Source: Planctomycetota bacterium (lineage in GTDB: Bacteria > Planctomycetota > SZUA-567 > H5-PLA8). Taken from it: a stretch of DNA of 59,925 nt. The notes beneath the pieces are model-generated. The model made no database searches, was not told where the DNA came from, and saw only the letters and a list, made by a program, of their open reading frames with translations. Of this stretch, positions 13,170-38,615 are shown one piece after another (position 1 is the stretch's first letter; every line of letters starts with the position of its first letter). Both the position numbers and the translations under genes were made by a program. The DNA is taken from the NCBI GenBank assembly GCA_038227875.1, contig JBBRPR010000054.1, positions 1 to 59,925 of the forward strand, given 5' to 3'.

Positions 13170-13248
13170 TGGTCGGGGCGGAGGGATTTGAACCCTCGAC
13201 CTCTTGCACCCCAAGCAAGCGCGCTAATCCAAGCTGCGCCACGCCCCG
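13170..13248 (-). tRNA. tRNA-Pro(GGG)
   Basis: Cloverleaf: acceptor CGGGGCG/CGCCCCG, anticodon arm CTTGC-TTGGGGT-GCAAG, T loop TTCAAAT, encoded CCA. Confidence 0.97.
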
Positions 13249-13310
13249 ATGTCTTAAAGGGTTGTATTTATTGAACTTACGAGCTTTTTATCTCTCCTAA
13301 TTTTCCAAGG

Positions 13311-13342
13311 CTATCGCACTTTGTGATAGCTGGTTGTGATAG
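13311..13342. repeat. Candidate integrase arm-type sites, left end
   Basis: TGTGATAG at 13322-13329 and 13335-13342 (13-bp period); inverted variant CTATCGCA at 13311-13318. Confidence 0.7.
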
Positions 13343-13441
13343 CATTTCATCGCTTCTCCGAACCAACACCCACGAGCCACTATGAATAACCCGCGCCGGG
13401 GTAATTCGCAAGCGGAAAGGCTCCGTCTGCTGGTCGCTTGT

Positions 13442-13463
13442 TTCAAATCCCGCCGCCCCGACC
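13442..13463 (+). other. tRNA-Pro-like 3' fragment (T arm + acceptor strand), inverted relative to the tRNA
   Basis: TTCAAATCCCGCCGCCCCGACC matches the tRNA 3' end at 21/22 positions. Confidence 0.65.
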
Positions 13464-17455: not shown

Positions 17456-19018
17456 TCAATGAGGGGGCGGCGGTAATAAAGGCGTTTCTCGCTCTGGATT
17501 GGGCAGCAGTCCAAGGGTCGTATCAAGATTCTCAAGTACCATTTTCGAGTGGTCGATGATTGAAAATAATATTTTGAAATATCCCTCTTTGGACTGCTGG
17601 ACATCCTTGACCTTTGTTCCTTCAAAGGTCTTGCGCAATAATTTGAAGACAATGGGAGTATCGAACAATGAAATCCGCCAGTTCTCCAATGTCATTCCAA
17701 CCGGGCTGATTATCTCGTAATCTGTGGGTGGATTGTTGGGAACGGTGACAGTAAAATTTCCATTAACGATTTCGGTGACAGAACCTTTCGCAGCAAGTTC
17801 CCATAACCTTAAAATATCCTGTTCATGTTCTTTCGTAATCATTCGTGGCAATTTCGGTTTAACGTTAAAATGTTCAGCGAGTTCACGTGCACGCTTTAGG
17901 AATCGCAAAAACCCTTGAAGGGTCACGAAAACTTCGCGGTCGGGAATTGCACCAATCACAAGCTCCGATTCGGCAAACCCTTCAATAGAAAAAACCGCCC
18001 CCTCTACAACAGCATCAGCAATTTTAACAACTTCGTCAAACCTGTTCAATCGTAACAACGGACAATTGTACCATGCCTTAAATTTAAAACTTAACTCCAT
18101 CGAGCCGGAATCCTTTTCTACCACAACACCAAGATGCAGAACGGCGCTATCATCATTGCTTTCAAAGCGCGATTCTTTCTGTGCTCGTGTTCGCAGCCCT
18201 TCTATTCGTGGAATTGCCAAAAGTTCGTTTCCATTTGCAGCCCTTGCAACCAAAGTGACCGAAGTGCGGTCTTCATTTGCAAACTTTATTGTCCCGACCT
18301 TTTTGATTTCGAACAATGGAGCGCCTTTAACTGTACATGATTCTGGTGATACAGGTATTTCGTAGCCCTTTGAAAACTTGTCGAGCATTTCGGGCGTCAT
18401 ATCTTTAAACGTAACGGCGAATTCGACGGGCTTTATAGGGGTACAGGTGTAATTCGTATGCGTTGCTGTTGCGCTGATTTCAACGGAGAACCGTGGGTCA
18501 AGCTTTTGTAATCGCCATTGTTCAAGCCGGATTTTATGCGCTACCATGAACTGTGTGGCATCGTCACACGCCGTTAAAAAGCTGGCGTGGTCCGCAAGAA
18601 AATTAGTGTACGGACATTTGACGTTTATCGTTTTTTGTGTTTCCCATTTTATGCCTTCAAGATGCTGATAGATATAGTCCTGTAAAAAGCAATAATACGC
18701 CGCTTTGTCTTCCAAGTCCACAACCACGAGAAATGCCGGAAGTGGCCATGTCTTGAGGCAGTCAATGAGAGTGGAAACTTCCAAGGGATAGCTAATGTAG
18801 TCCTTGCAATGCTTACCCCTACCATCCTTGGTTCTTCCCTTCAACTGGATAAAAATCTCGACACCGGCTGGCTCTTCATTCTTGAAAATTTGCCCTTTAT
18901 AATCCACCCCGTAGTCATTTACCGATATGATTGCGAGAGCGCACTTTTTGGTTATTAGGGATTCAAAGACGCTCTTTGCCGCGTCATTGATTTCATGCTG
19001 TTCGGTTCTCTTCGCCAT
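17456..19018 (-). CDS. DUF4365-type PD-(D/E)xK nuclease-domain protein
   Basis: N-terminal DYGVD...IFIQLKG motif and LPAFLVVVD strand; long unrecognised C-terminal region. Confidence 0.8.
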   Translation of the reverse strand: MAKRTEQHEINDAAKSVFESLITKKCALAIISVNDYGVDYKGQIFKNEEPAGVEIFIQLKGRTKDGRGKHCKDYISYPLEVSTLIDCLKTWPLPAFLVVVDLEDKAAYYCFLQDYIYQHLEGIKWETQKTINVKCPYTNFLADHASFLTACDDATQFMVAHKIRLEQWRLQKLDPRFSVEISATATHTNYTCTPIKPVEFAVTFKDMTPEMLDKFSKGYEIPVSPESCTVKGAPLFEIKKVGTIKFANEDRTSVTLVARAANGNELLAIPRIEGLRTRAQKESRFESNDDSAVLHLGVVVEKDSGSMELSFKFKAWYNCPLLRLNRFDEVVKIADAVVEGAVFSIEGFAESELVIGAIPDREVFVTLQGFLRFLKRARELAEHFNVKPKLPRMITKEHEQDILRLWELAAKGSVTEIVNGNFTVTVPNNPPTDYEIISPVGMTLENWRISLFDTPIVFKLLRKTFEGTKVKDVQQSKEGYFKILFSIIDHSKMVLENLDTTLGLLPNPERETPLLPPPPH

Positions 19019-19728: not shown

Positions 19729-20013
19729 ATGGAAAATTATCACAAGAAGCAGACCATAACAATTGAACCGCCCGGCTACGTTCATGGTTGGGACCGTGGA
19801 GGCTACTATGGCATGGTATTCAGATACCTAAAGGAGATAGGTGCAGAAATCGTTATTGATGTTGATAAAATTCCCTCTCAAATACTATGTGATGGAGTCA
19901 CCGTCGAGCCTGTGAAAGACCCATTATTTCAAGCCATGAATACTGCCGACCGCCTTGGCTACACAAAATTTCGGCTTGAAATAGCTAAAGCACGAAGGGA
20001 GAGCCGAAAATGA
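19729..20013 (+). CDS. Hypothetical protein
   Basis: AAGGAG RBS before ATG 19729; stop overlaps the start of the next gene (ATGA). Confidence 0.65.
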   Translation: MENYHKKQTITIEPPGYVHGWDRGGYYGMVFRYLKEIGAEIVIDVDKIPSQILCDGVTVEPVKDPLFQAMNTADRLGYTKFRLEIAKARRESRK

Positions 20014-21365
20014 TTACCAGCGCAGACTTGAAGGCTTATGAAGTGTGGAAAATTCGCAAATTGAACAGCAGTACATCCAATAACCGCACTCCGATTGCGC
20101 CGGTTGAAGATGTGCCCGGCTCTATAGGATTCGCAGTCAATACTCCGTCGCTTCCACCTGATACTTCCGCCAACTCCTGTTCTTGGCGTGGTGTAAGCAA
20201 CGCGGACGTGGAAAAGGTGCTCGCTCAATATCCACTCGGCAAAATCGTCGCAGAACTGAGGCGGGTATCGGACCCGCCGTTGCCACTGGAACTCGCATTG
20301 CCGAACGCCTTGGCAATGACTTCTTGCGCACTCTCTCGTGATAATGGGATTCTGGTTGACCCGGCGACAGGTACTCCGCGTACAGGCACAGACAGGCTTG
20401 CTGTGCGCGTCAGCATCAACGGGTTGGTACAGGGCCTGAATCTTTACCTTTTCGTGGTCGCGCCGTCAATGAGTGGAAAGGATTTAGGCGGGTTTGAGAA
20501 AGTTTTGACGGATTTGGGGATTGTAGTTCAAACTGGCGGCTCGCGTGAGGGTATCATGGACGGTCTTGATTACCCGAACCCGCTCATTCGAATCTCGGAA
20601 TTCAAGCATTACATGGATGCGCGGCACTACAACAATGGCGTCCTGAGTCTTTTAACAACACTGTTCACGAAGTATGAAGGTTCCGACAAATACGCAAACA
20701 GCAAACGCGATATCTTGTTCACAGCGCCGACATTGTTAGCGTCGGTGCAGCCGGGAATCATGCGCGACAAATTTAATTCGGAAAACGTAAACGATGGCTT
20801 CTTTGGGCGGTTGCTAATTACCTATTTAAGTGACATAGAGTTTTGGAAAATTGGGAAGGGCTTGGATAGAAAATTTCTTCAAGGCGCGGTGAAGGAGTAC
20901 ATGGAACTAACCGGCGAGTTGCGTCTGACCGGAGAAATGTTTGAACCGCTGGCCCGCGAAGTATGGGGTTCGCCGATTCGAACAACTGCGGGAAGGCACT
21001 TTAGAGAAATGGGACATCGACTGGCAGTGCACTTGACCCGCTCCTTGACCCCAACGCCAGCGGATTGGGCGAATACCGGCATTCTGCTTCGCTGGTTCAT
21101 CAATCAGCATGAACGTGCATTTTTCAATGTCGGGATGTCGGAGAGCGAGAGCTACGCCGCTAAAAGGGAGCGATGGCAGAATCTTATTATTTCGGCTATC
21201 CAGAAATGCCATGAAAAGGGATTGCCTACGGGTCGCGAGAATATCGCACGTCAGCACAACCATCTGACGTGGGGTTGCAATGGAAAGACAAGGAAGGCGG
21301 TTTTGGACGACATGGTAGAATTGGGAACCCTCATGGAAGGTGGTGGGGAATATCGGGTTGTGTAG
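20010..21365 (+). CDS. DUF3987/YfjI-like P-loop NTPase (putative replication helicase-type protein)
   Basis: Walker A VVAPSMSGKD, SREG, Walker B-like IRISEF, ASVQP, DGFFGRLL, C-terminal winged-helix-like end. Confidence 0.75.
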   Translation: MITSADLKAYEVWKIRKLNSSTSNNRTPIAPVEDVPGSIGFAVNTPSLPPDTSANSCSWRGVSNADVEKVLAQYPLGKIVAELRRVSDPPLPLELALPNALAMTSCALSRDNGILVDPATGTPRTGTDRLAVRVSINGLVQGLNLYLFVVAPSMSGKDLGGFEKVLTDLGIVVQTGGSREGIMDGLDYPNPLIRISEFKHYMDARHYNNGVLSLLTTLFTKYEGSDKYANSKRDILFTAPTLLASVQPGIMRDKFNSENVNDGFFGRLLITYLSDIEFWKIGKGLDRKFLQGAVKEYMELTGELRLTGEMFEPLAREVWGSPIRTTAGRHFREMGHRLAVHLTRSLTPTPADWANTGILLRWFINQHERAFFNVGMSESESYAAKRERWQNLIISAIQKCHEKGLPTGRENIARQHNHLTWGCNGKTRKAVLDDMVELGTLMEGGGEYRVV

Positions 21366-21825: not shown

Positions 21826-22788
21826 TCAGCAAGTATCATGCTTTGATTTCCCATGCGACTCCAACCATTTCCGCTTGTACTCGTAGTAGTAGCTCCGGTT
21901 TAGCTGTGTCTTCGAATGCCACACTTTTTCGCGGTCTTCCTTATCGCTCTTGAGCTTCGGGTCATTGAGAATCTCGGCTATCACTTTCATGCGACGAGAT
22001 TCCTGATTGTCCTTTTTGCCTTGAGCGGTGCCGGAGCGAATCAACTGGACTGCCCGACGCTTCCAGTCTCGTGGATATTTCCGTTTAAGTGGCAAAATGG
22101 AATGGGTGTAGAGCCGAATGTCTCCCACATGGACGTATTCGATGTTGTCCTCAACGAGACGGTAAACGTCCTTGTGGTGCTTCATATCCCACCATGTCTT
22201 GACGTAATCGTGGACTTCGGGGACGGTCGGCTCAAACGCAATGAATGTTTCCGCACGGCTGTAGAGCGCCTTTAAGTTGCCAGTCATTTTCGTCGGCAAT
22301 TCATTTGTAATCAGGCACACGCGGCCAGAAGTCTCAAAGCAAGTTGGGATTCCCGCTTCCATGAGCGTCTTGTTTTGCTTTTCCCATGACATGATTTGGG
22401 GGGCTTCGTCGCACATGCTTTTCAGCATCGAGACGGTTTTCTTGTCGTCGTATATGGCATCCATGTCGTCCAGAATCAGGCCCGCGCCATTTTGTTGCAA
22501 TGCCTTCCACGCAAGAGTGTAAAGCCCCACGGGGCTTGCGTCCGTCTTGCGATAAAGGCAATTCGCTTGCTGTGCGTTGCTTCGCAAGTAGTAGGATTTT
22601 CCCGTTCCGGGCGAACCTAAGACAACCAAACAGGGTGTCTGATAGGTGGGCTTCCTTTTCGTCTGTGTCCCCCACAAAAACATGTCGCACTCGTCGATGA
22701 ATTCGGCGAAGGTGTGGATGTTCTGCACACGAATGTGTCGCGCCCGGAGCCAATCGAAAAACTTCCGCACGTCCATTGGGTTTTGCAT
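21826..22788 (-). CDS. P-loop ATPase (AAA+/SF3-like) with C-terminal HTH-like tail
   Basis: Walker A GSPGTGKS, Walker B LILDD, sensor CLITN, ALYSR arginine finger, tail TQLNRSYYYEYK. Confidence 0.8.
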   Translation of the reverse strand: MQNPMDVRKFFDWLRARHIRVQNIHTFAEFIDECDMFLWGTQTKRKPTYQTPCLVVLGSPGTGKSYYLRSNAQQANCLYRKTDASPVGLYTLAWKALQQNGAGLILDDMDAIYDDKKTVSMLKSMCDEAPQIMSWEKQNKTLMEAGIPTCFETSGRVCLITNELPTKMTGNLKALYSRAETFIAFEPTVPEVHDYVKTWWDMKHHKDVYRLVEDNIEYVHVGDIRLYTHSILPLKRKYPRDWKRRAVQLIRSGTAQGKKDNQESRRMKVIAEILNDPKLKSDKEDREKVWHSKTQLNRSYYYEYKRKWLESHGKSKHDTC

Positions 22789-23089: not shown

Positions 23090-23554
23090 TCATTCATGTA
23101 ACGACGCAATCTCAGCCGAAAATACGCGACACCCTGATTTCAAAATACGAGCCGTATCAACAGGAAGATACCAGTAGCTCTGTGGCGGTAAGAATCCCGG
23201 CACTCGTTCGCGAAGTTTTTCAAGTGCCACGGGTCGCGTATAGCGCCAAGCTTTTTCGATGCCGATACCATAGGCTTTATTACAGCCTTTAAAATAGCTA
23301 TGAAACTCGGTGCGAGTCAGTCCAGACGTAGCGCCAACACGGAGCCATAGCTTCTCTGGAGATTCTGCATGCACGCCTGAAACTTGGAACGCACCCGCCA
23401 GCGCCATTACGGGTGCGGTCACGTACACAAAAACAACGTCTCCCCGCTCACGCCGTGGTCGAATTCGCCTTAGCTCCACAGTTTTTTCACCACGGAATAT
23501 GCGGTCTGCATGTTCCGGGCGAATCGACAATAAGAGGGTACTGTCTGAACTCAT
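23090..23554 (-). CDS. ASCH (PUA-like) domain protein
   Basis: LLSIRPEHADRIFRGEKTVELRR, VYVTAPV, PPQSY. Confidence 0.9.
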   Translation of the reverse strand: MSSDSTLLLSIRPEHADRIFRGEKTVELRRIRPRRERGDVVFVYVTAPVMALAGAFQVSGVHAESPEKLWLRVGATSGLTRTEFHSYFKGCNKAYGIGIEKAWRYTRPVALEKLRERVPGFLPPQSYWYLPVDTARILKSGCRVFSAEIASLHE

Positions 23555-25614
23555 TTGCGCCCCCCCGCTGCAAGCCGATAAAGCTCAAAGTACGTTGTCG
23601 GGGAAATCAAAACAGGCGACTGATGCGTGGTCTTAATGTCAGCGGCGCGTAGAATGGGTTTGAGCGCTTTAAACTTGATTGGCGCGGGGAGCACTTCGGT
23701 ATCGACAAAGCGAATTGCCATTATCCTGTTGTCCAGATTTCCCTTGGCAAGTTTCTTTACATGCTGCCGATGATAAACTCCGTATCGGCGATTCTTAGCA
23801 AAGAGTTCTCGTGCAGAACCCACTTCAACTTCCGTTATCAAGGATGTAGCGCATAGCTCTTTCACTTCTCTGCTGACATACCAGTACACTCTTGCTGGCG
23901 CTGTAAGAATAGCTGGTCTTGCAGCACGGTAATAGACAGCCTCACGATTCATTGCCACGCTCTCATCCGCTCCCAACAACTCACCCTTCGCAAGCCGCTG
24001 GTCAACCAGATGCTTCGCCCACTCAGGCCTTATTGGAATGATGAAACACGGAATGTTGCCGTCCTTAACCTTGAACGGCCAAAACCGCCTCTCAATCTTC
24101 AAAACCGTATCTGTGCTCTTGGGAGTTATCGGCAAAGACAGGCCGTTACCGAAGGGATTGATTGAATCTAAAGACTCGCCGCTCGAATTCGCGACGCCGT
24201 CAAGTATCAAGGAAAGCTGGCTACAATCGCCACAGGCTCTTGGGCACACTTTGAGCCAGTCGAATTTACTGCGTGAGAACTCCTCTTGCAACGCCGTCGA
24301 AGTTTCATCCTGTAGGAATGAATCAGTAAGTCGAATAAGCAAAAGCTCACGACTGACAGCGTGTTTCACTATTGAAAACAGGAGGTGCCGCACAAGAGTA
24401 GAGGCTTGCGGTCCCTGTCGCAATCTCAAGCATGGAATCCGCAGTTCACTTTCTTTGGAATAATCGTATCCAATTAGCGCAATTGGCTGCTCATCAGCGG
24501 TTTGAATAATCTCAAGCTTGCATTTTTGGGTTTGGACAAGAATTGCGGCCAGCCGGTTAGTAAATTCTGTCTTCTTCTCACGTTGGGCCGCGTTTTGGAA
24601 CACTTCGGCACATCTGGAAAAATCATCTTTGGAAGCCCGTGTTACCGTGCATCGAGTCTCCGCCAAGCGTATGGGTTGATATTGGTCCTCATGGCGCAAA
24701 GCATCCAGTTCAACGATAAGCTCCACTGGGCGAATAATCCGCAATCCGAATTCTGCAAATACGTCGAAGGATATTCCTAAAAGTCGCGAATCACGTGTCA
24801 CAAAGACGGAGATTTGATTTGTTATGCTTTTCAAGACTTGGCGAAAATCGGATTGGTCACTTTCGGTGCCCTTGTCGCTCAGGATAGGTCGAAGCTTCTT
24901 GACCACGGCTTCGAAAGAATCGTGGGGCGCGCTAAGGATGGGAAATGATTTTGCAAAAGCCCGATTTGCTTTGCGGCGTTCCTCATTTGCATGCCGATGG
25001 ATTTCATTGAATATCTCGTCGGTAACGCATAACTCGATTAGCCCGACTAACCAATCACTTTGTAGTGCGTGTGATTCTTCGTTAAAGGGTTCGGCGTTTG
25101 GGCAAAGGTCGAAGAAAATATTTGCATCGAGCACAATCCGCAAAGCGGTTGTCGTGGGCGGAACAGAGAGTAGATTCTTGTGGCAGTTGTCAGACCACCA
25201 AATCGTGAGCCGCTTTGCATCCTTGCTCCGCCCAACACATTCACCCACCGCAGCAAAATTAAATTTTGGCCAAACCTGATTTTCCTTAAAGTCTTGACGG
25301 CACTTCAACCCAATTCCTGCACAATCCCTTGTTCTGATTCGAAGTCCATCAATCAGCATCCTTGCAAGACCTTGCTTCCGATATTTTGGAGCCGAACAAA
25401 GATGCACAATTGTGGCCTGTACGCCACTTCGGCGGTATAGCAGATATCCGAAAAGATTCGCTCCTTCACAAACGGCCAGCAACAGTTTTTTCGAAGCATG
25501 CTCTTTAAAGCCGCCTTCCGGCAAGAAACCGAGAGTGCCTGATTGGCTACGCCACAGTTCAAGCACTTGCCGAAAGTATTGGGAATCTGGCTCGACTTCG
25601 ACAACTTCGCGCAC
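23551..25614 (-). CDS. GNAT acetyltransferase-PIN ribonuclease-ASCH/PUA-like fusion protein
   Basis: GNAT (HLCSAPKYRKQGLAR), PIN (IVLDANIF, TDEIFNEI, SD, FVTRD), C-terminal FIIPIRPEWA...VYY...VYWYVS. Confidence 0.82.
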   Translation of the reverse strand: MREVVEVEPDSQYFRQVLELWRSQSGTLGFLPEGGFKEHASKKLLLAVCEGANLFGYLLYRRSGVQATIVHLCSAPKYRKQGLARMLIDGLRIRTRDCAGIGLKCRQDFKENQVWPKFNFAAVGECVGRSKDAKRLTIWWSDNCHKNLLSVPPTTTALRIVLDANIFFDLCPNAEPFNEESHALQSDWLVGLIELCVTDEIFNEIHRHANEERRKANRAFAKSFPILSAPHDSFEAVVKKLRPILSDKGTESDQSDFRQVLKSITNQISVFVTRDSRLLGISFDVFAEFGLRIIRPVELIVELDALRHEDQYQPIRLAETRCTVTRASKDDFSRCAEVFQNAAQREKKTEFTNRLAAILVQTQKCKLEIIQTADEQPIALIGYDYSKESELRIPCLRLRQGPQASTLVRHLLFSIVKHAVSRELLLIRLTDSFLQDETSTALQEEFSRSKFDWLKVCPRACGDCSQLSLILDGVANSSGESLDSINPFGNGLSLPITPKSTDTVLKIERRFWPFKVKDGNIPCFIIPIRPEWAKHLVDQRLAKGELLGADESVAMNREAVYYRAARPAILTAPARVYWYVSREVKELCATSLITEVEVGSARELFAKNRRYGVYHRQHVKKLAKGNLDNRIMAIRFVDTEVLPAPIKFKALKPILRAADIKTTHQSPVLISPTTYFELYRLAAGGRK

Positions 25615-25617
25615 TGG

Positions 25618-26808
25618 TCACAGCTCCCCGTTAAACGCTTTGTCGAGAATCGAAGGCAACAGAGCGTCCAGTTCGGCGGCGGTTTCTGCTTGAAGTTTCT
25701 TCAACGCATCGACCTTGGCTTGTAGGCCGTCAAGGTAAGCCACGATGCGATGTTGTTCTTGAAGTGTCGGAACCAGAATCGGTATTTGTCGGATTCGTCC
25801 TACACTAAGGCTGCGAAGGCCGCTCGTAGTACGACTTTGCTGTTGAACCGCGTCTTTACCGACCGGACTATTGAGATACAAGTTTAAATACTCTGGCCAA
25901 ATTCTTGCTTGGTCCAGTCTAACCCGGATGACATGGTTTTGGTGTACGCACGGTTGAAGTTCTCCACGAAACAACGCCGCTCGTCCAATTTCGCTTTCGC
26001 TTCCATTTCCCTCAATGATTAAGACATCGCCCGCAATTAGCGCCCACCGCTCAAGCTCGCCAGCGTTTACTTCGAAATATCGGGGGTCATCAAGAACGAT
26101 TCTATTTCGATGGACATGCGCAACGGTCAAGTAACGAATGGGATTGGCCCCTGCAACACGATGTGGACCCTTTTGAATGCCACCGCGTACTTCGGCCAGC
26201 ATTTCAATTGGTAGAACTACAGCATCGGGTTGCTCACGAAGGAGTTTCGCGGCGGTGGATTCTCTAAACGAATTCGCTTCTTCCGCCGCCAATCGCCGCA
26301 GCCCCCGCGCCTCTTCCACCTTTGCCGCCAATTCCTCAATTCGAGATAAAATTCGACGCTGTTCCGACACAGGTGGTAATGGAATTTTAATAGTAAGAAA
26401 TAGTTCGGGTTTAATGCGGTTCTTTCCACTTGTACCGCGAGATAACTGGTCGCACTTCTCCCAAAAGGAGCGTGTCTTTGTCTGCCAGTGAATCCACCGG
26501 TGTAGGACTTTGGATAAGTCCAATTCGAACGTGGGAAACTCATTAGATGCGGCACAACCGTCAACGGCCTTCGTCGCAATAGCTGTTGACCCATGCCGAA
26601 CCCAAATCTTGTTGATAATTAGGTCGCCCTCTCGAACGAACGATAGCACTCTCGCCGCTGTCTCGGAGCCGTCGATGGTTTCTCGTTCATAGGCACCCTC
26701 TCCCCACCATTTCACACCGATGGTGCGATACGATGTACCCGGAGTGACCGGAACAACGCGGCTGATAGGACTGGATATTTCACATAAGGGTACGTCCGGG
26801 TAAATCAT
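25618..26808 (-). CDS. hsdS: Type I restriction-modification specificity subunit
   Basis: Two TRDs with conserved IPLPPVSEQRRI and VPTLQEQHRIVAYLD; ends SILDKAFNGEL. Confidence 0.93.
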   Translation of the reverse strand: MIYPDVPLCEISSPISRVVPVTPGTSYRTIGVKWWGEGAYERETIDGSETAARVLSFVREGDLIINKIWVRHGSTAIATKAVDGCAASNEFPTFELDLSKVLHRWIHWQTKTRSFWEKCDQLSRGTSGKNRIKPELFLTIKIPLPPVSEQRRILSRIEELAAKVEEARGLRRLAAEEANSFRESTAAKLLREQPDAVVLPIEMLAEVRGGIQKGPHRVAGANPIRYLTVAHVHRNRIVLDDPRYFEVNAGELERWALIAGDVLIIEGNGSESEIGRAALFRGELQPCVHQNHVIRVRLDQARIWPEYLNLYLNSPVGKDAVQQQSRTTSGLRSLSVGRIRQIPILVPTLQEQHRIVAYLDGLQAKVDALKKLQAETAAELDALLPSILDKAFNGEL

Positions 26809-28343
26809 ATCTTTGCCCCTTCAAGCACTATCTTAATTTCCGCCATAATGTCCGCAATGCGCTGTTCCTTTTTTAAAATGTCGTCTGCCAATTGTTCTGG
26901 CGGTAGGTGTTCAAAATCGACCTTGCCGCGTGGATTCTTGATGTCGAGATTGCAACCGTGGGAAAGAATGTCGCCAGCGGGCACTTTCCAAGCCCGGTCA
27001 TTTTCAACGCGCTCTTTCCACCACGCCATGCATGGTGCGAATTCTTCGAACTGAATCGGCGCGGTCTTCGTGTAGTTCTTGCGGTCTACTGGTAACGGCT
27101 GCTCGTAGTACCAGATTTCCGTCGTGGGGCCGGTGCGGTCAAAGAACAGCAAGTTCGTGGGGATGCCGGTGTAGGGCGCGAACACACCGTTCGGAAGGCG
27201 CACGATGGTATGTAGATTGAATTCTTTGAGCAAGTCTTCCTTGATACGAGCACAGATGCCGTCACCAAAGAGCGTGCCATTCGGTACAACCAATCCGGCG
27301 CGGCCCGGCTTGGGCTGGCGCTTGAGTTTCCGCATAATCAGTTGCAAAAATAACAGCGCTGTCTCAGCGGTCTGCTTGTCGTCGGGAAAGTTCGATAGAA
27401 TCCCGCGCTCCTCTTCACCACCGAAAGGCGGGTTTGTCAAAATCACATCAACGCGGTCCCTGTCGCCGATTTCATTCAGCGGGAACCGAAGCGCATTTCC
27501 GGGGTCAATTTGCGGTGATTCCAAACCGTGAAGCAGCAAATTCATTTGCCCCAACAAGTATGGCAACGGCTTGGCTTCAACACCGAAGATGCTTTCAGTT
27601 TGCAATGCCCTTCGGTGCTCGACGGTCTTGCATTGCTTTTCTAAATGCAAATAGGACTCGACCAGAAATCCGCCTGTGCCGGAAGCCGGGTCGAGAACTT
27701 TTTCACCAAGACGTGGGTGTGTCACTTCAACCATGAAACGGACAACGGCACGGGGCGTGTAGAACTCGCCGGAATCCCCCGCCGCATCCCGCATTTCCTT
27801 GAGCATAGACTCATATAAGTGGCCGAGCGTATGGATTTCATCGCTGCTTGTGAAGTGAATGTCGTTCAACTTGTTGATGACATCCCGTAGCAGATAACCG
27901 TTTATCATCCGGTTCAACGTGCCCTTGAAAACGGTTGCGACCACATCGCGCCGGTCACCGCCATTAGAACCCTGTAGGCTCCGCAAATACGCAAAGAGTC
28001 CCGGCCCTTTTTTTCCATCCGGGAGCCTTGCTTCTTCGTTGTTGATAAAGGAAATCAGTTCATCCCCGGTGATGCCGTCTGACTTCGCAGCCCAATCCCG
28101 CCAGCGATACGGCTTTTCAATGGAAGGCTTAAATCGCTTTCCAGAGAGTTTCGATTCTTCTTCGCGGATATGTTCCATGTCATCAAGGAATTTCAGGAAC
28201 ATAATCCATGTCAACATGGGCAAACGGTCAAGGTCGCCACTCAGTCCCTTATCCTTTCGCATAATATCGCGGGAGGACTTAACGATGGAGCCAAGTTTTT
28301 GGGCAGTTGTAACTTCACTCAAATTTTGTAGTTTTCCTTTCAT
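26805..28343 (-). CDS. hsdM: Type I RM N6-adenine methyltransferase
   Basis: GEFYTPR, DPASGTGGF, NPPF. Confidence 0.97.
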   Translation of the reverse strand: MKGKLQNLSEVTTAQKLGSIVKSSRDIMRKDKGLSGDLDRLPMLTWIMFLKFLDDMEHIREEESKLSGKRFKPSIEKPYRWRDWAAKSDGITGDELISFINNEEARLPDGKKGPGLFAYLRSLQGSNGGDRRDVVATVFKGTLNRMINGYLLRDVINKLNDIHFTSSDEIHTLGHLYESMLKEMRDAAGDSGEFYTPRAVVRFMVEVTHPRLGEKVLDPASGTGGFLVESYLHLEKQCKTVEHRRALQTESIFGVEAKPLPYLLGQMNLLLHGLESPQIDPGNALRFPLNEIGDRDRVDVILTNPPFGGEEERGILSNFPDDKQTAETALLFLQLIMRKLKRQPKPGRAGLVVPNGTLFGDGICARIKEDLLKEFNLHTIVRLPNGVFAPYTGIPTNLLFFDRTGPTTEIWYYEQPLPVDRKNYTKTAPIQFEEFAPCMAWWKERVENDRAWKVPAGDILSHGCNLDIKNPRGKVDFEHLPPEQLADDILKKEQRIADIMAEIKIVLEGAKI

Positions 28344-29137
28344 GGAACGCTATGGCCCCCTTTGGAAGAGTTCGCCTTCTTAGAACGTGGCTTTCTACCC
28401 TTGTTAATCACCTTACTTAACTTTTGAAGAGACACGGTACGATTGCCGAGCACTTCCTCAAGTACATGGTAAACCAAATCCAGTGCGTCAAAAATATCGC
28501 TCCTTTCCACAATACCTGTGTGGCTACCTTCATTCCCAATCCATTTTGCAGCGAGCAACAAGTCGGCAAGCTCTGGCCTTTGTACTCGAAATCGCTCTAT
28601 CCGTTTGTGAAGGGACAAAGGACTCCTTTTTGACCCTTTTTTCAATAACGCATATTGGGGAATGTTCTGAGTAGTAAGCAATGCTTCTATCGACGAACGA
28701 ATATGATTTACAGCCGACCCTTTATCGCACCAGAACACTGAAAATGCTTCTTCAATCGGTGCGCAGACTTCCTTTGGCCAACCAGATGGCAAGTTCAACA
28801 ATTTCAAAGGGGGGTCAAAATACTTAGGATAATACTCATATAAATTGACAGGAATGCCCTCATTATCTTCGTAGTCGTTTACTCGATACGAACCACAGGT
28901 GCTAACTACTTCACTGCAATGTTTGCGATTACAACGAAGCAAACAAGAAAATTTCCCGTGCTCCCAACTTGGGTCCCAATCTTGGTGTTTCCTATCCGCG
29001 CCAGATTCAGGTGCTTCTTGTCTAACAAGTAATTTGGCATCGGGTGTGAGCACTCCGAGCCTACAGACAGGGCACAACCATTTTGTATCGTAATCATCTA
29101 TAAAAGATTCTCGAAAGCTGTCTCTATCAATTGCCAT
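28340..29137 (-). CDS. DUF4145 (HEPN-like) domain protein with N-terminal Zn-ribbon-like Cys pairs
   Basis: CPVC and CNRKHC; IEEA...AVNHIRSSIEALL...LHKRIE...KWIGNEGSH. Confidence 0.8.
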   Translation of the reverse strand: MAIDRDSFRESFIDDYDTKWLCPVCRLGVLTPDAKLLVRQEAPESGADRKHQDWDPSWEHGKFSCLLRCNRKHCSEVVSTCGSYRVNDYEDNEGIPVNLYEYYPKYFDPPLKLLNLPSGWPKEVCAPIEEAFSVFWCDKGSAVNHIRSSIEALLTTQNIPQYALLKKGSKRSPLSLHKRIERFRVQRPELADLLLAAKWIGNEGSHTGIVERSDIFDALDLVYHVLEEVLGNRTVSLQKLSKVINKGRKPRSKKANSSKGGHSVP

Positions 29138-29149
29138 TTTCGCCCCCGC

Positions 29150-31504
29150 TCACGCGACGTAAAGCAGTGTCTGTAATTTGTTCACAGCCTCACGCAGCTT
29201 CTCCGCCCCGCCAAAAATCTGTACAATCTCGACCACATTGCCCAGCTCGGAAATCGGCGGCACCTTTAGCACGTCCGGGATAACAAACTGCGCCGTGCCG
29301 TGGTCGGCATACTTTTCGAGCAACGTTTCCAGTATCGCCTTCGCCTTGGGGCTGAATTGGTCGAAAAAGTCCTTTTTATCGCGCCGGAGCCTTTCTGCCC
29401 GCTCACGACGGGTGCGAAGCGGCGCGTTGTATGCGACATGGCACAGCAAGTCGAACGGGTCCGCGTCCGGCTGCTTGCTCTCTGTTTTCAGGTGGTCGAA
29501 GTCGATGCCGTGGTCTGCCAGCGCCGCGATAAGTTCCGAACGCTTCTCCGGGTCGGACCACTTGGCGCGCAACTCGACGGCGGAAGGATACAGTGTCCGA
29601 ACTTTTTCCGCCGTGTAATCCGTGTACAGGACACAGCGCAACTGCTTGCCATCCGGGTCTACGTCGTAGACAAGGTGGGTGCCAATTTCAACGTGCCCGC
29701 CATCGTAGTAAAATTTGCGGCGCTGTTCCGGTGGGTCGTCACTGACATCGGGCGGATGCGTATCCAAGTCGGGGTACGTTGGCTCGTTGATAACGGGCTG
29801 CTGCGTCGGTCGTCCTGTGTCGTCTATCTGCTCTTCGGTGATTCGGGCCGGGTCGCCGTCGAAATCCGGGTCCGCGAAAAGCTGTGTGGCAGACCCCGTG
29901 TAGTCAAGGATGTTGAAGAAAAGCTTGCCGTAGTCATCACGCACGCGAGTGCCGCGCCCGATGATTTGCTTGAACTCGGTCATGGAATTTACGATTCGCG
30001 CCAGCACGACATTTTTACAAGTCGGCGCATCAACGCCCGTGGTGAGAAGCTGTGATGTTGTGAGAACGACCGGCGTTTGCGTTTCAACGTCTTGAAAGCG
30101 GCTTAAATGCCCCCGTCCAATGTCGCCTTCATCGGCTGTCACCCTGCAAACATAGTCCGGGTATTTCAGCACAAGGTCGGCATTCAAGTTGTTCAAGGCT
30201 TGCCGCATTTCGTCGGCGTGTTCTTGGTCAACGCAAAAGATAATGGTCTTGGCAAAGCGGTCAGTGGCTTTCAGGAACTCCGTAAGATGCCGCGCGAGAG
30301 CCTCTGTGCGAGCCTTGAGCGCCACAAGTCGTTCAAAGTCCCTTGTCTGGTACATGTCATCCGGGATGCTGCGCCCGAAGCGGTCAATATCGCCTTGACT
30401 TGGACGCCAGCCAGCCGCATCCCACGTCGTGACCACCCGATGCACACGGTAGGGCGCAAGGAAGCCATCTTCGATGCCTTGCCGGAGACTGTACGTGTAG
30501 ATTGGATTTCCGAAATACCGATACGTGTCTGCATTGTCGTTGCGTTTTGGAGTTGCAGTCATGCCAAGCTGGAATGCTGGCTCAAAATATTCCAGAATTT
30601 CGCGCCAGTTGCTGTCATCCTTGGCGCTTCCACGATGGCACTCGTCCACCACGATTAAGTCGAAGAAGTCCGGCGCGTATTCCTTGTACAAGCCGGGGCG
30701 GTGTTCGTCCTTCGCAATGGCTTGATATATGGCGAAGTACATTTCACGGCCCTTGTTGATGACGCCGTTCTCAATTTTCCAACGGGCGTCACCAAAGGGG
30801 GTGAACGTCTTGTCTTTCGGGTCATCAACAAGAATGTTCCGGTCGGCCAGATACAGAATCTTGGGGCGGTGGTGGTCGCCCTTTCGACTCCAATGGGCAT
30901 TCCAAAGCTTCCAGCAAATCTGGAAGGCTACCTGTGTCTTGCCGGTTCCCGTTGCCATCGTCAGCAGCACCCGGCGATTCTTTTTTAGAATTGCTTCGAC
31001 GGCGCGGTTGATGGCGATTTCTTGATAGTAGCGTGGCTGCTTTCCGCCAATCAAGCAGTACGGCGAGAGCAACTGTGAAACGCTCTTGTCGTCGGCCAGC
31101 CCTGTCGCAGCCCGGAGCCGCTTCCACAATTCCGTGGGGGTCGGATATGCGTTGACCTTTCGTTCAATCCCGGACGTGTAATCGAATTCAACAACTTCGT
31201 GGCCGTTTGTCGAGTAAGCGAATTTTAGGTCGAGAATTTCCGCATACTCTTTCGCTTGCTGCAAGCCCGCAGTCGGCAATTCGTCTTCGGCCTTGGCTTC
31301 GATGACGCCAATGGGGAAGTCGCGAGTGTACCGCAAGATGTAGTCGGAACGCTTTTGCGGGCGGCGGCGCACTTTGTTGCCGGTGACAATGATGCGTCCG
31401 TCAGTGAACGTGCGCTGTTCCGTGAATGAATGCGGGTCGTTATCCCACCCCGCCGCAATCAGCTTCGGGAGCACCAGTTTGCGGCAAGTGTCGGCTTCGT
31501 TCAT
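29150..31504 (-). CDS. hsdR: Type I RM restriction subunit (EcoAI/EcoEI-like)
   Basis: Nuclease IEAK, ATGTGKT, DECH, TATP, QIIGRGTR, EcoEI-type C-terminus; start at MNEADT. Confidence 0.96.
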   Translation of the reverse strand: MNEADTCRKLVLPKLIAAGWDNDPHSFTEQRTFTDGRIIVTGNKVRRRPQKRSDYILRYTRDFPIGVIEAKAEDELPTAGLQQAKEYAEILDLKFAYSTNGHEVVEFDYTSGIERKVNAYPTPTELWKRLRAATGLADDKSVSQLLSPYCLIGGKQPRYYQEIAINRAVEAILKKNRRVLLTMATGTGKTQVAFQICWKLWNAHWSRKGDHHRPKILYLADRNILVDDPKDKTFTPFGDARWKIENGVINKGREMYFAIYQAIAKDEHRPGLYKEYAPDFFDLIVVDECHRGSAKDDSNWREILEYFEPAFQLGMTATPKRNDNADTYRYFGNPIYTYSLRQGIEDGFLAPYRVHRVVTTWDAAGWRPSQGDIDRFGRSIPDDMYQTRDFERLVALKARTEALARHLTEFLKATDRFAKTIIFCVDQEHADEMRQALNNLNADLVLKYPDYVCRVTADEGDIGRGHLSRFQDVETQTPVVLTTSQLLTTGVDAPTCKNVVLARIVNSMTEFKQIIGRGTRVRDDYGKLFFNILDYTGSATQLFADPDFDGDPARITEEQIDDTGRPTQQPVINEPTYPDLDTHPPDVSDDPPEQRRKFYYDGGHVEIGTHLVYDVDPDGKQLRCVLYTDYTAEKVRTLYPSAVELRAKWSDPEKRSELIAALADHGIDFDHLKTESKQPDADPFDLLCHVAYNAPLRTRRERAERLRRDKKDFFDQFSPKAKAILETLLEKYADHGTAQFVIPDVLKVPPISELGNVVEIVQIFGGAEKLREAVNKLQTLLYVA

Positions 31505-31710: not shown

Positions 31711-33210
31711 TTATCTTTCAGTCGAAGTGTCGCTTGCGACCAAATTCCCGTAATGTTTTTTTATTGTCTCAACATCATCCCTCAAAACCGATGCTGCCCG
31801 GTCACACCCGTACTTGAGCACCAATTCACGGGCACACGTCCGCCTAAAGGTCCGTGAATCCATCGGTTTGGTGTTACCCAATACGCTCGTTGCGGCCTTG
31901 CGTAGAATTTTTCTAAAAGCATTGGTGAACGTGTAGCCATTACCGCCTTGCTCTGCTTTATCCTCATTGCCGTCAAATATGGGTGGTACTGGCCACAACT
32001 TGTGCTTGCGTTCAAACTCTGTTATTTTTTCTTGAAAACGTGGTTCAATGAATTTTAAATCACAGGGGAAAAGCAAAAAATTATTTTCAGCCAAACGTCT
32101 CTTGATTGCGTCCATTACAGCCTTGTTAAGCTGCACGTATTCCTCTGAGTTGTCTGTTTTCAGACGGCGCACTAGCTGCTTGCCGTCGAAAATGCGTGCT
32201 ATGTGGATTTGGTTCTTGACTAAATCGACTTTGGAACTTTGCAGCAATGGCAATTCCTCTGCTCGCAACCCAAGCTGATACTGAATAGTTGCGGCATCCC
32301 GGAAATACTGTTCAGGTATCGCAGCTATGACTTGTGTGGCTTGTTCCGGTTCCAACCATACCCATTCCGTATTGGTCTCAAGGCGTGCTTGTACTGAAAG
32401 GCTCTTGGTGAGCGTGAACAACCGACGTTCATCAAAATTGCCGTTAGTGCTGTAGCGTAGGAACGTGGCAAGGTTGATGCGTATGCGCCTCTTGGTGTCC
32501 GCACCCACGGGCTTACCGTCCTTCCCATTTTTGCCCTTGCGTCTTAACCCGAAAATGTGCTTGGCAACTTGTTCCGGGGTCACATCCATAATATTTTCGC
32601 CCATCCCAAGTTCATTGCCAAAGCGCTTAAACCAGCCTTTAAGTGCGTCACGCCATGAACTACGGGCACCACACGCCCCACTGTCGAAATAATCCGCTAT
32701 CGCTTGGGAAATGAGCTTTCTTGCCCCATCCTTTATATCCCTCAAGCCCTGTCTCTTGCGTTCAGCCTTGAACAACATGTTTTCGTGCTTGTATTTATCA
32801 CGTTCTTGGATTAGGGCCGGGATTTCCGTGACCTTGTTTACAAGGTCAATAAAAATGCGGCGTGCCTGAATGAACTGCGTTTGGTTCTCCGGAGTGAGTC
32901 CGTTTTTGAGTTGCTTGAAAATAATTGACAGTGCTTGGTCACTTGTCATGTCATCAATTTCTGTGTCCACAGGATTCCAAATTTGTGTGGTCCGTGGATG
33001 CAACCCCGATGGCAATTTATGCCAATGCTCTGTGGGTCCGTAGATGATACCGGAAAGCTCACCGGCTATGCGTTCAGCAATGCCCATGTCTACCGTTTCG
33101 GTGGTAGTGTAGATTTGGCGTTTGGGATGGGTTCTTGGGTCTCTGAAACGAACGTAGAGCATACCGCCCGTGGACTGCTGTTTGATTTCTACGCCCTTGA
33201 ATTTTTTCAT
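31711..33210 (-). CDS. Tyrosine recombinase/integrase
   Basis: GLRAEEL (Arg), RLKT (Lys), RTFRRT, KKHY (Tyr); lies about 100 bp from the att repeat. Confidence 0.88.
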   Translation of the reverse strand: MKKFKGVEIKQQSTGGMLYVRFRDPRTHPKRQIYTTTETVDMGIAERIAGELSGIIYGPTEHWHKLPSGLHPRTTQIWNPVDTEIDDMTSDQALSIIFKQLKNGLTPENQTQFIQARRIFIDLVNKVTEIPALIQERDKYKHENMLFKAERKRQGLRDIKDGARKLISQAIADYFDSGACGARSSWRDALKGWFKRFGNELGMGENIMDVTPEQVAKHIFGLRRKGKNGKDGKPVGADTKRRIRINLATFLRYSTNGNFDERRLFTLTKSLSVQARLETNTEWVWLEPEQATQVIAAIPEQYFRDAATIQYQLGLRAEELPLLQSSKVDLVKNQIHIARIFDGKQLVRRLKTDNSEEYVQLNKAVMDAIKRRLAENNFLLFPCDLKFIEPRFQEKITEFERKHKLWPVPPIFDGNEDKAEQGGNGYTFTNAFRKILRKAATSVLGNTKPMDSRTFRRTCARELVLKYGCDRAASVLRDDVETIKKHYGNLVASDTSTER

Positions 33211-33237
33211 TGTGCAAAACCCTCAAAAAGAGAGCTT

Positions 33238-33314
33238 TGTGATAGTCAAATGTGATAGGATTTCAAGTTGATTTCATGGGTAAAGCTTACAGCGCAAGGC
33301 TTTAACTATCACCA
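33238..33314. repeat. Candidate integrase arm-type sites, right end
   Basis: TGTGATAG at 33238-33245 and 33251-33258 (13-bp period); inverted CTATCAC at 33306-33312. Confidence 0.7.
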
Positions 33315-33316
33315 TT

Positions 33317-33364
33317 TCTTGCACCCCAAGCAAGCGCGCTAATCCAAGCTGCGCCACGCCCCGA
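33317..33364 (-). repeat. Attachment-site repeat: 5' half of tRNA-Pro (through the anticodon arm)
   Basis: Identical to 13202-13249. Confidence 0.95.
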
Positions 33365-35591: not shown

Positions 35592-38500
35592 ATGAAATCC
35601 GATCCGCTGAGCACTCTTCCCACGCCCCTCTCACCGCCGTCCACCACCCCACCCAAGCTGACAACGCTGCGCGATAAATGGGCGGCGTTTTGGCACAAAG
35701 ATCCCGTCGCTGAACGCCTTGACGCGATCACGATGCGCCAACGGCTGTTCAATCTGCTCGCGGTGCTGATGTTCGCCGGCACGTTCGGTTTGATTTACAT
35801 CAACGTCATGATGAGTCTCGACCGCGCGTTCGAGCTCACGTCCATCACGCGGCAACTGGCGTTGCTCGCGGCGCTCGGCGCCACGGTGGCGGCGGCGATC
35901 CTGCTGTTGCGACGCATGGTTTTCCGGCGGATGGACCCGCTGCTGTACGCCCGCAAGATCGACGAGGCGCTCGGATTTGACGACGACGCGCTGATTACGT
36001 ATTTCGATCTCAGCCGCAAAAAGACGCTGCGCGATAGCGAGACGGAAGTCGTGGGACTCTTGAAAGAACACGCGGCCGAACGTCTCAACGCGATTGATGT
36101 CGATCAGGTCGTCGATGCGCGCTGGCCGGGCCGCCTGTTGCGCGCCATGGGTTTGAGCTTCGGGTTGTTGCTGGTGTTCTACATTGTCTGGGGCGGCTCA
36201 TTTGAAGACTCGTTCTTCCGCTGCATCACGCCGTGGCAGAAGATCGCCCCGCCACGACCGACGCGCATACTCGACGTGCTTCCCGGCAACGGCACCGTTG
36301 TGGCCGGCGAGCCGGTGAAGTTCATCGTTACGGCTCGCGGCAACGCGCTGCCGGAATGGGCGACACTGGTTTACAAGCTCGACGGCGATGCCACGGAATT
36401 GGTGGAGCGCCTGGAACGCACTGAGGCTGGCAAGTACGAACACGTCATCCCTGGCTTCGGTCGCGCGATCTCGTATTCGGTCGTGGTCAATACCGAGTCA
36501 AAAGGTCCGTTCGTACTGAGAGTCGTGGAACGGCCTCTCGTGACCAACGTCAACGCGCGTATCCTTCCGCCCGTTTACGCGCCGTTTGCTCCCGCGCGCG
36601 ACGTGGAAGGCGGGCACGTTCAGGCCATCGTCGGAAGCCGCATTGAAATCACGGCCGTAGCAAACCAGAGCGTCGCCAACGAGCTGGATCCCGGCGCGGT
36701 GAACGCCTGGCTCCAGGTGGGTGTGCGGCGCGTACCGCTGGCGGTTCAAGGGACCACGTTGAAAGGCACGTTGCTCGCCAGCGAAGACACCGAGTACGAA
36801 ATCTGCTACCGCGGCGCCACGGGTTTGACCAGCCGCGAAGGCGTTCACTATAAAGTAAAAACGTTCCCCGATGCGCCGCCCAAGGCGACGCTGCAGCGTG
36901 AAGGCGCGCCCGACGCGCCGGCCGATCCGGGTGCAACGGTCTTTCTGCGCGGTGGCGCGACCGACGATCTGGGTGTGCGCAAGGTTCAACTGAGTGTCAG
37001 CGTTCCCGGCCGAACGACCGGCACGGCACCGCGGATTATCGATCTATCTCCCGCCAACCCGCAGGCCCAGCTTCAGCAGCGCATTCCCGTCGATCTCTCG
37101 GGGCTGAAGCTCAACGACGGCGACATCGTGGAATGTGTGCTTAGCGCGTATGACGTGAAACCGCCGACCGGGCAACTTGGCGCAAGCCCCGTGGTGAAGA
37201 TTCCGATTCTGCGCGGCAGCAAGGATGATTCCGACCATCGCGATAAGGAGATCAAAGACGAGAAGAGCGACGACACGGTGATCAAGTCGCGCGACGAGAC
37301 GAAGCCCGGCGATACAAAGAAGGCTGACGCCTCTGCCACCGATGGACCAAAACCTGACGAGCAGAAAGCGCAGGAGGATCAGGACGCCAAACGCGACCTC
37401 TCGAAGCCTTCGAAAGAGACAGGGAAAACGGTCACGCCGCAGGAACGTGAAGAGATGGCGCGCAAGTTGAAAGAAATGGCCGACCAACTCGCGGAGAAGA
37501 GCAAGCAGGAAAACAAGGACGCCAGCAAGAAGGACAATCCGTCAGAAAGGGACGAGCAGCAACCGTCCAAACCCGGCAGCGATTCAGCCAAGGGCGACCA
37601 GGGGAAATCGGATAAGAATCAGAGCCAGGACGGTAAAGGCGCGGATCAAAGCAACGGAGAGAAAGCGCAAGGACAAGGTGGCGAGGGTGGCCAGGGAAGT
37701 GATGGCGGTCAAGGGCAAGGCCAAGGCAAGAGTAAAGAACAGGGCCAAGGACAGGGTCAGACACAAGGTCAAGGCCAAGGGCAAGAACAAGGCAAGGGTC
37801 AGGGCGAAGGCAAGGGTCAAGGCGAAGGCAAAGGTCAAGGCGAAGGCAAGGGTCAAGGCGAAGGCAAGGGTCAAGGCGAAGGTAAGGGTCAAGGCGAAGG
37901 CAAGGGTCAGGGCGAAGGCAAAGGTCAAGGCGAAGGCAAGGGTCAGGGCGAAGGCAAAGGTCAGGGCGAGGGCAAAGGTCAAGGCGAAGGCAAAGGTCAA
38001 GGCGAAGGCAAGGGTCAGGGTGAAGGCAAGGGTCAGGGCGAAGGTAAGGGTCAAGGCGAAGGCAAAGGTCAGGGCGAAGGCAAGAGTCAGGAATCGGGAA
38101 AGAGTTCCAGCGGCGGCTCACCGGGCCAAGGCGGCGGAAATCCTAATAGCGGATCCGGCGGCTCTCCCACGGCCGGAAAAGGACGCACTCCCAACTCGAA
38201 CAACTCCAGCAAGAATCCCGGCGAAAAGCAGCTCGAAGGCCTGGCCGATGACATCCGCGAGAACAAGATCGACGAACAGACACTCCGAAACATTCGCGAC
38301 ACGCTCGACCATCTTTACGAAAGCGGCCGGAAATTCAGCAGCGAAGACCGCGCGAAGCTCCTCGAGGCTGCAAAGAAAATCGCGCCGGAACATACGCCCA
38401 CTACTGCGGACGAAAGCGATCCGGCCCGCGTCACAAGTCCCGACGGCCGGGCTCGAAAGGAACTGGTGGGACGCTTTGAAAAGTCGAACGTTCAGAATCA

Positions 38501-38615
38501 TACCGGCGAACTGAAAGAGGACGATCAGCGCAAAGCGACCGACTCAGAACAGATTCACGTCGCCCCGGAATACAAAAAGTCCGTCGAGCAATACTACAAA
38601 GCCGTATCACACTGA
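35592..38615 (+). CDS. Large membrane protein (DUF4175-like architecture) with Ig-like domains and a Gly/Gln/Lys/Glu repeat
   Basis: Three N-terminal TM segments, beta-rich domains, ATDDLGV motif, low-complexity region, ends APEYKKSVEQYYKAV. Confidence 0.85.
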   Translation: MKSDPLSTLPTPLSPPSTTPPKLTTLRDKWAAFWHKDPVAERLDAITMRQRLFNLLAVLMFAGTFGLIYINVMMSLDRAFELTSITRQLALLAALGATVAAAILLLRRMVFRRMDPLLYARKIDEALGFDDDALITYFDLSRKKTLRDSETEVVGLLKEHAAERLNAIDVDQVVDARWPGRLLRAMGLSFGLLLVFYIVWGGSFEDSFFRCITPWQKIAPPRPTRILDVLPGNGTVVAGEPVKFIVTARGNALPEWATLVYKLDGDATELVERLERTEAGKYEHVIPGFGRAISYSVVVNTESKGPFVLRVVERPLVTNVNARILPPVYAPFAPARDVEGGHVQAIVGSRIEITAVANQSVANELDPGAVNAWLQVGVRRVPLAVQGTTLKGTLLASEDTEYEICYRGATGLTSREGVHYKVKTFPDAPPKATLQREGAPDAPADPGATVFLRGGATDDLGVRKVQLSVSVPGRTTGTAPRIIDLSPANPQAQLQQRIPVDLSGLKLNDGDIVECVLSAYDVKPPTGQLGASPVVKIPILRGSKDDSDHRDKEIKDEKSDDTVIKSRDETKPGDTKKADASATDGPKPDEQKAQEDQDAKRDLSKPSKETGKTVTPQEREEMARKLKEMADQLAEKSKQENKDASKKDNPSERDEQQPSKPGSDSAKGDQGKSDKNQSQDGKGADQSNGEKAQGQGGEGGQGSDGGQGQGQGKSKEQGQGQGQTQGQGQGQEQGKGQGEGKGQGEGKGQGEGKGQGEGKGQGEGKGQGEGKGQGEGKGQGEGKGQGEGKGQGEGKGQGEGKGQGEGKGQGEGKGQGEGKGQGEGKGQGEGKSQESGKSSSGGSPGQGGGNPNSGSGGSPTAGKGRTPNSNNSSKNPGEKQLEGLADDIRENKIDEQTLRNIRDTLDHLYESGRKFSSEDRAKLLEAAKKIAPEHTPTTADESDPARVTSPDGRARKELVGRFEKSNVQNHTGELKEDDQRKATDSEQIHVAPEYKKSVEQYYKAVSH
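37791..38078 (+). repeat. 16 tandem 18-bp units encoding GKGQGE
   Basis: Units differ only at synonymous positions. Confidence 0.95.

Follow-up and report, generated by a model that had tools for sequence, protein, structure and literature searches.

The window analyzed here, a stretch of 59,925 nucleotides from a Planctomycetota bacterium (GenBank assembly GCA_038227875.1, contig JBBRPR010000054.1, positions 1 to 59,925), carries a block of six genes in which a type I restriction-modification (RM) operon (hsdR, hsdM and hsdS) is accompanied by a gene of the DUF4145 family and, at the distal end, by two genes encoding a fusion protein of 687 amino acids (aa) and a solo ASCH protein. The two distal genes form a portable cassette, a near-obligate pair that is independent of type I RM, and the six-gene block is not one co-evolved system. 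The best explanation is an intact-looking type I restriction operon of a mobile island with two separately acquired passengers, namely the cassette and the DUF4145 gene. A first-pass annotation of this DNA had read the block as a layered anti-phage system, in which PIN and GNAT activities would serve as a back-up to type I restriction.

The distribution of the cassette was analyzed in 169 other loci, comprising the best 80 of 230 genome matches, the best 80 of 500 metagenome matches, five loci from the phylum, three from the plasmid collection and one viral contig. The ASCH partner gene was found in 163 of them, and four of the six misses have less than 180 bp of downstream DNA. A type I operon adjoined the cassette in none of the 169 loci, at least 2 kb of upstream DNA being present in only 95 of them. 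HsdM-like matches occurred in two loci: the one in L046 is a methyltransferase-specificity fusion adjoining a type II nuclease, and the hsdM of L171 lies 8.9 kb off, with unrelated genes between. As a control, the same type I queries detected a second type I system in the genome of the window (E 8e-31). Conversely, neither the cassette nor the DUF4145 gene was present in any of 11 loci with an HsdM 62-78% identical to that of the window (three of these loci end less than 1 kb from hsdS, and one has no hsdS match). Among 401 genomes of the phylum, the fusion was found in six and a close HsdM in 11, while both occurred together only in the window's own genome (G000). A conserved linkage of the cassette to type I RM across genomes was thus not found, and the proposed back-up to type I restriction is not supported from either direction; in the window, its placement behind the type I operon is a chance result of how this island was assembled, and is of little further significance.

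The family itself is large. At E 1e-30 or better, relatives of the fusion amounted to 1,719 representatives. The family comprises at least 150 clusters at 50% identity that nearly all align over the whole length, and several phyla contribute large Atlas clusters. A search with the full fusion gave no match among 50,697 phage records and a single locus among viral contigs, and a metagenome scan with one fusion protein as query gave no match; relatives of the ASCH protein were present in 31 phage records, including those of archaeal viruses.

The fusion was modeled with AlphaFold2 from 114 sequences (mean pLDDT 89.6, pTM 0.60), resulting in four domains: GNAT1 (residues 1-143), PIN (approximately 158-305), GNAT2 (318-462) and, after a helical linker, an ASCH/PUA-like domain (520-684). 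The GNAT, PIN and ASCH domains that had been named in the first-pass annotation are therefore all present, yet its count of three is one short, a degenerate GNAT2 lying between PIN and the ASCH-like domain. Pfam matches covered residues 39-123 (GNAT, E 3.6e-4) and 159-276 (PIN_3, E 1.4e-7), and the solo protein matched ASCH (E 1.7e-3). The best folds for GNAT1 were Ard1 (Z 19.7, rmsd 1.8) and RimI (Z 19.2). Residues 318-462, folded alone, likewise adopted a GNAT fold (Z 13.3, rmsd 2.7 over 135 residues); the comparison of sequence profiles between GNAT2 and GNAT1 was not significant (0.9%), and the assignment was decided by the fold search. The C-terminal domain matched the fold of ZmASCH most closely (Z 16.3, rmsd 2.5 over 141 residues), whereas its profile had no PDB sequence below E 0.1 and no match to PF01878 (EVE). 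Motifs were counted in the 248 homologues of at least 640 aa out of 254 collected proteins: motif A was intact in 187 for GNAT1 and in one for GNAT2, and the PIN tetrad (D163, E200, D256 and D275) in 234. A set of aromatic residues (W532, Y561, Y562, W578, Y579 and Y614) was kept in the ASCH-like domain.

The ASCH-like domain of the fusion and the solo ASCH are paralogues (HHalign 95.6%, E 1.2e-8) that differ at the catalytic positions. In the solo ASCH, K24, E27, R29 and Y44 were invariant in 101 of 101 sequences, a set that was collected with the ASCH of the window, thinned from 145 to 100, and for that reason leans towards the window protein. In the fused copy, the position of the catalytic Glu is occupied by Tyr (Y561 in 243 of 248), and there is no conserved Lys, its position falling in a gapped part of the alignment. 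The fused domain has therefore lost the catalytic Lys and Glu, while the solo ASCH retains both. Among sequence relatives of the solo ASCH, only ZmASCH has a solved structure (E 5e-15). Its Tyr47 and Ser128 are kept; its Lys53, in contrast, is Met in the window (Lys in 63 of 101), and ZmASCH was studied alone, without a partner gene, in the work describing it. The solo ASCH looks more like a predicted antitoxin enzyme than like the sensor of modified phage nucleic acid or RM inhibition that had been suggested for it.

The two-gene architecture has been published before as the PIN_17 operon, defined by Matelska, Steczkiewicz and Ginalski (2017; PMC5499597), and the window is a further case of this predicted kind; because of this, the novelty that the first-pass annotation had allowed for largely falls away. 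For six genera, Suppl. Fig. S6B of that paper (as given in the text layer of the figure) labels GNAT, PIN_17, GNAT and PUA with a PUA gene behind them, and most rows of its Table S1 place the start of PIN at approximately residue 150-190. Two organisms of that table, Nitrospira defluvii and Prevotella oral taxon 299, also gave loci of the present set (L007 and L175, PIN aspartate at residue 166), and the assignment of the window fusion to PIN_17 is based on these two shared organisms and on its architecture. In agreement with the VapC-like PIN expected at about residue 160-330 in that operon, the fusion has its PIN behind an acetyltransferase domain, and a GNAT without motif A between PIN and the PUA-like domain; the second PUA/ASCH copy is the next gene, with a 4-bp overlap. 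PMC5499597 likewise describes a PIN-associated GNAT without motif A, and considers the proteins as probably lacking acetyltransferase activity, whereas motif A of the N-terminal GNAT was kept in most homologues here. The passages of that paper concerned with the operon also give no RM context and describe no experiment.

A second published description, that of Bell, Wolf and Koonin (2020; PMC7641849), reports uncharacterized PIN-GNAT-EVE proteins with ASCH near type I RM and DUF499 operons, with frequent type I RM links for the PIN-GNAT-EVE proteins and one ASCH-HsdS fusion. In common with it, the window has an ASCH gene next to a fusion of PIN, GNAT and PUA-like domains, but it has an extra N-terminal GNAT and no Pfam EVE match, and no AAA_17 or HTH partner was seen; moreover, the type I RM link is rare in the four-domain branch. 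Three fusion-family motifs were searched in the supplements of PMC7641849, and were not found there. The cassette also corresponds to the PADLOC candidate PDC-M11: the solo ASCH matched PDC-M11B (E 5.4e-34) and the fusion matched PDC-M11A partially (E 2.7e-17), the profiles of the latter having 357-501 positions and starting with PIN or GNAT. All of 17 fusion-family members matched PDC-M11, in their PIN or C-terminal parts. According to Payne et al. (2024; 10.1101/2024.01.29.577857), PADLOC candidates of this class are untested. Altogether, the earlier statement that similar neighborhoods were known bioinformatically, and a mechanism was not, agrees with these three descriptions; literature searches on the fusion/ASCH family retrieved no experimental or mechanism paper, but the search on the Gev names (see below) was swamped by unrelated matches, so one may exist.

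In Escherichia phage PhiR47_2 (GenBank PV340567.1), a GNAT-EVE gene deposited as "GevT toxin" overlaps an ASCH gene deposited as "GevA antitoxin", and both products match PDC-M11. GevA matches the solo ASCH profile (E 5e-39) and keeps its G-x-K-x-x-E-x-R motif; GevT differs from the window fusion in its length (357 aa) and in having no PIN, no extra GNAT and no canonical motif A. The GevT/GevA pair lies directly after cI in this lambdoid phage (L187:2944-4372). This position is the place of rexAB in lambda.

The genes beside the cassette were scanned against Pfam (229 of the 234 nearest neighbors, the other five being members of families already scanned). They included Mrr (10 loci), McrB (8), DUF499 systems (5) and type III RM (3), together with type IIG, type ISP, BglII and Eco29kI systems. 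A restriction-type gene lay within 3 kb in 23 of 72 genome loci (15 of 72 when self-hits are disregarded), compared to 0.5% of random stretches in G000; these values are to be read with the queries having been picked from the neighbors themselves, with many loci being cyanobacterial kin, and with three of the 23 resting on an HNH-like family that was so called from its motif and had no library match at the thresholds used. The 72 loci were those left after dropping 13 near-duplicate or very short ones. In G328, the closest relative that has the cassette and a member of the same family, it stands behind a DUF499 operon. This enrichment and the PDC-M11 match make a defence role of the cassette plausible, so that the anti-phage part of the earlier proposal is plausible, and its layering on type I restriction is not supported.

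With a confidence somewhat short of even, we favor the view that the cassette encodes a predicted toxin, which would acetylate and cut RNA, with the solo ASCH as a predicted enzymatic antitoxin removing the acetyl mark. In this scheme, GNAT1 would place the mark, which is most likely N4-acetylcytidine (ac4C), on tRNA or another RNA; the fused, catalytically dead ASCH-like domain would bind the marked base; PIN would cleave the RNA; the solo ASCH would take the mark off again as long as the cell is uninfected; and phage infection would tip the balance towards arrest of the cell. The complete circuit, in which a self-contained writer, reader, cutter and eraser all act on one acetylated cytidine, is rather doubtful when taken as a whole. 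The evidence in favor consists of the conserved motif A of GNAT1, the PIN tetrad, the invariant Lys and Glu of the solo ASCH and the near-constant presence of the partner gene, along with the patchy spread in the phylum and the restriction-type neighbors. By analogy, it also includes a 2026 preprint (10.64898/2026.02.27.708502), in which all tested ASCH proteins, ZmASCH included, removed ac4C34 from bacterial tRNA in vitro and Lys and Glu were essential in a GKER-type enzyme. The solo ASCH has the same Lys and Glu of G-x-K-x-x-E-x-R and is predicted to share this activity; the deposited toxin and antitoxin labels of GevT and GevA point the same way. Several observations weigh against the scheme. 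The same preprint reports no activity of ZmASCH on free ac4C and no drop in tRNA ac4C in E. coli cells, and warns that the deacetylase activity may be a remnant, while ZmASCH was described earlier as weakly cleaving single-stranded RNA (Kim et al. 2017; PMC5615036; PDB 5guq). GevA keeps the motif although GevT has neither a canonical motif A nor PIN, which implies that the motif is not tied to GNAT1; moreover, GevT aligns weakly to the fusion family (HHalign 5%), and the Gev names are deposited labels. The best folds of GNAT1 are protein N-terminal acetyltransferases, so its substrate could be a protein or an aminoacyl-tRNA. Finally, 49 of the 72 loci have no restriction gene within 3 kb by the query set used.

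PrrC acts as a guard of EcoprrI, firing when the restriction complex is inhibited, and a counterpart here would be a layered system, with the cassette and the DUF4145 gene standing guard over the type I RM complex and being set off by its inhibition. Such an arrangement is improbable: the tight spacing in one block would suit it, as would the cassette abutting other methyltransferase-based systems (type ISP in L020; DUF499 in L021, L088 and L117; Eco29kI in L173) and the type I links and ASCH-HsdS fusion of PMC7641849, but a guard must fit its partner, and the partners found beside the cassette are unrelated systems or absent altogether, which speaks against it together with the counts given above for the adjoining operon and for either passenger. 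The alternative following Bell et al. (2020), a type IV-like modification-dependent defence in which the ASCH/PUA domains read a modified base of phage DNA or RNA and direct PIN or GNAT against it, is unlikely; the first-pass annotation had proposed part of this reading. The conserved aromatics of the fused domain agree with it, and PMC7641849 argues that ASCH in such operons binds modified DNA; the frequent Mrr and McrB neighbors would also agree, yet most of the Mrr and McrBC cases are cyanobacterial kin. Furthermore, the adenine and ribose methylations tested in PMC5615036 had no effect on binding and cleavage by ZmASCH, and the invariant catalytic Lys and Glu of the solo ASCH, as well as the antitoxin label of GevA, are left unexplained.

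The residues of the solo ASCH also bear on an ordinary type II toxin-antitoxin pair, in which the fusion would be toxic via GNAT (acetylation of aminoacyl-tRNA or protein) or PIN and the ASCH would block it by binding, non-enzymatically. A near-obligate two-gene unit with overlapping frames, the deposited Gev names and the listing of PIN_17 among potential toxin-antitoxin toxins (PMC5499597) are what such a pair would predict, but the invariant residues are those of the catalytic pocket of other ASCH proteins, and an antitoxin that only binds need not keep them; we consider this quite unlikely. Little weight is given to self-marking, a proposal of Iyer et al. (2013) as reported by citing papers, in which acetylation of a DNA base by GNAT1 would serve as a mark or as protection of the DNA, the mark being read or reset by the ASCH domains. 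An intact GNAT1, the restriction neighbors and the binding of DNA as well as RNA by ASCH proteins (PMC5615036; 10.64898/2026.02.27.708502) are in line with it, whereas PIN has the fold of an RNase, its active site being intact, and the loci share no conserved cognate DNase.

Further observations were made around the cassette in other genomes. On a Calothrix plasmid (L173:5832-13536), it is flanked by a cytosine methyltransferase-Eco29kI pair and by McrBC, with all genes in the same orientation. In L006:6981-12774 and L027:8401-14087 it has a thymidylate-synthase-like/DUF4346 gene on one side and, on the other, Mrr together with a gene for a dCTP deaminase or dUTPase, and in L075 a NUDIX-deoxynucleoside kinase gene is upstream of it. 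The family with the HNH-like motif by reading (258-317 aa, without library match as above) adjoins the cassette in eight loci (e.g. L075:12562-13392). In L025:3148-10057 it is directly followed by two large genes (1438 and 866 aa) in the same orientation, neither of which has a Pfam or PADLOC match at strict thresholds.

Table 1. Features of the six-gene block and of the mobile island, in coordinates of the window.
Feature	Position	Strand	Description
hsdR	29150..31504	-	Type I restriction subunit, EcoAI/FtnUII family; nuclease, Walker A and DECH motifs present
DUF4145 gene	28340..29137	-	Embedded accessory gene; four-cysteine N-terminal region and DUF4145 (HEPN-like)
hsdM	26805..28343	-	N6-adenine methyltransferase; S-adenosylmethionine-binding and NPPF motifs present
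hsdS	25618..26808	-	Specificity subunit; two matched stretches
PIN_17-type fusion	23551..25614	-	Predicted toxin, 687 aa; GNAT1, PIN, degenerate GNAT2, helical linker, ASCH/PUA-like
Solo ASCH	23090..23554	-	Predicted antitoxin; ZmASCH / PDC-M11B / GevA family; G-x-K-x-x-E-x-R motif intact
Left attachment repeat	13202..13249		48 bp; 5' part of tRNA-Pro(GGG) 13170-13248
Right attachment repeat	33317..33364		48 bp, identical to left; island of about 20.1 kb
Tyrosine integrase	31711..33210	-	PF00589, E 2.9e-7

The six co-oriented genes were recovered as the first-pass annotation had described them, all on the minus strand, with gaps of 12, -4, -4, 3 and -4 bp in the order hsdR, DUF4145 gene, hsdM, hsdS, fusion and ASCH (Table 1). 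From this spacing co-transcription of the six genes is inferred, and the cassette would simply ride on the transcript of the restriction operon; promoter and terminator counts in the window were lower than the shuffled expectation. HsdR scored 1069 bits against NF046051 of the EcoAI/FtnUII family (cut-off 550), HsdM and HsdS matched N6_Mtase (E 6e-61) and Methylase_S (E 1.5e-11) as well as their PADLOC models, and the three subunits of an EcoAI/FtnUII type I system are thus all present with catalytic motifs. HsdM has relatives in 10 other genomes at the identity given above; the window differs from its 11 related loci in the DUF4145 gene between hsdR and hsdM and in the cassette after hsdS.

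The DUF4145 gene (Pfam E 5e-13) is a passenger separate from the cassette. Its GC content is 44%, compared to 56% for hsdR and 51% for hsdM, and its protein has nine relatives at E 1e-20 or better, counting itself. Four Cys and K198, N202 and H206 (K-x-x-G-N-x-x-x-H; K-W-x-G-N-x-x-x-H in the window) were invariant in all nine. With respect to the HEPN motif R-x4-6-H, the His was invariant and Lys stood instead of Arg in nine of nine, suggesting that the product may be a putative HEPN-type RNase with Lys for Arg.

The mobile island that had been proposed around the block was confirmed by a perfect 48-bp direct repeat that bounds it and overlaps tRNA-Pro, with a tyrosine integrase and a resolvase inside, and its GC content (44-56%) differs from that of the genome (59.6%). 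What is duplicated as the attachment sequence is the 5' part of tRNA-Pro(GGG), so that the island provides the 5' side of the intact tRNA gene; most tRNA-integrating elements duplicate the 3' end instead. Imperfect repeats just inside both ends (13319-13349 and 33235-33265) are possibly arm sites of the integrase, and a 22-nt inverted copy of the tRNA 3' end, inside the left end (13442-13463), is possibly the remnant of another tRNA target. A 520-aa protein encoded at 17456-19018 (DUF4365, E 5e-9; weak AbiGii match, E 0.005) is a further candidate defence gene of the island. Two convergent genes (20010-21365 and 21826-22788) with weak DUF3987 and AAA matches possibly form its replication module; the AAA-like gene of this pair was rejected as a third component of the cassette, being 301 bp off and having no match in 81 loci. 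Outside the island, 35592-38615 encodes a 1007-aa protein with a long low-complexity Gly/Gln/Glu/Lys repeat.

The fusion/ASCH family to which the cassette belongs is widespread and has been predicted in three published descriptions, none of which gives a mechanism. The pattern of an active GNAT, an intact PIN, a dead fused ASCH and an intact solo ASCH offers four single-residue tests that separate the models discussed here. If the complete circuit of writer, reader, cutter and eraser proved true, it would represent an immune switch based on RNA acetylation with an enzymatic antitoxin, and would provide a function for the whole PIN/GNAT/EVE-ASCH family.

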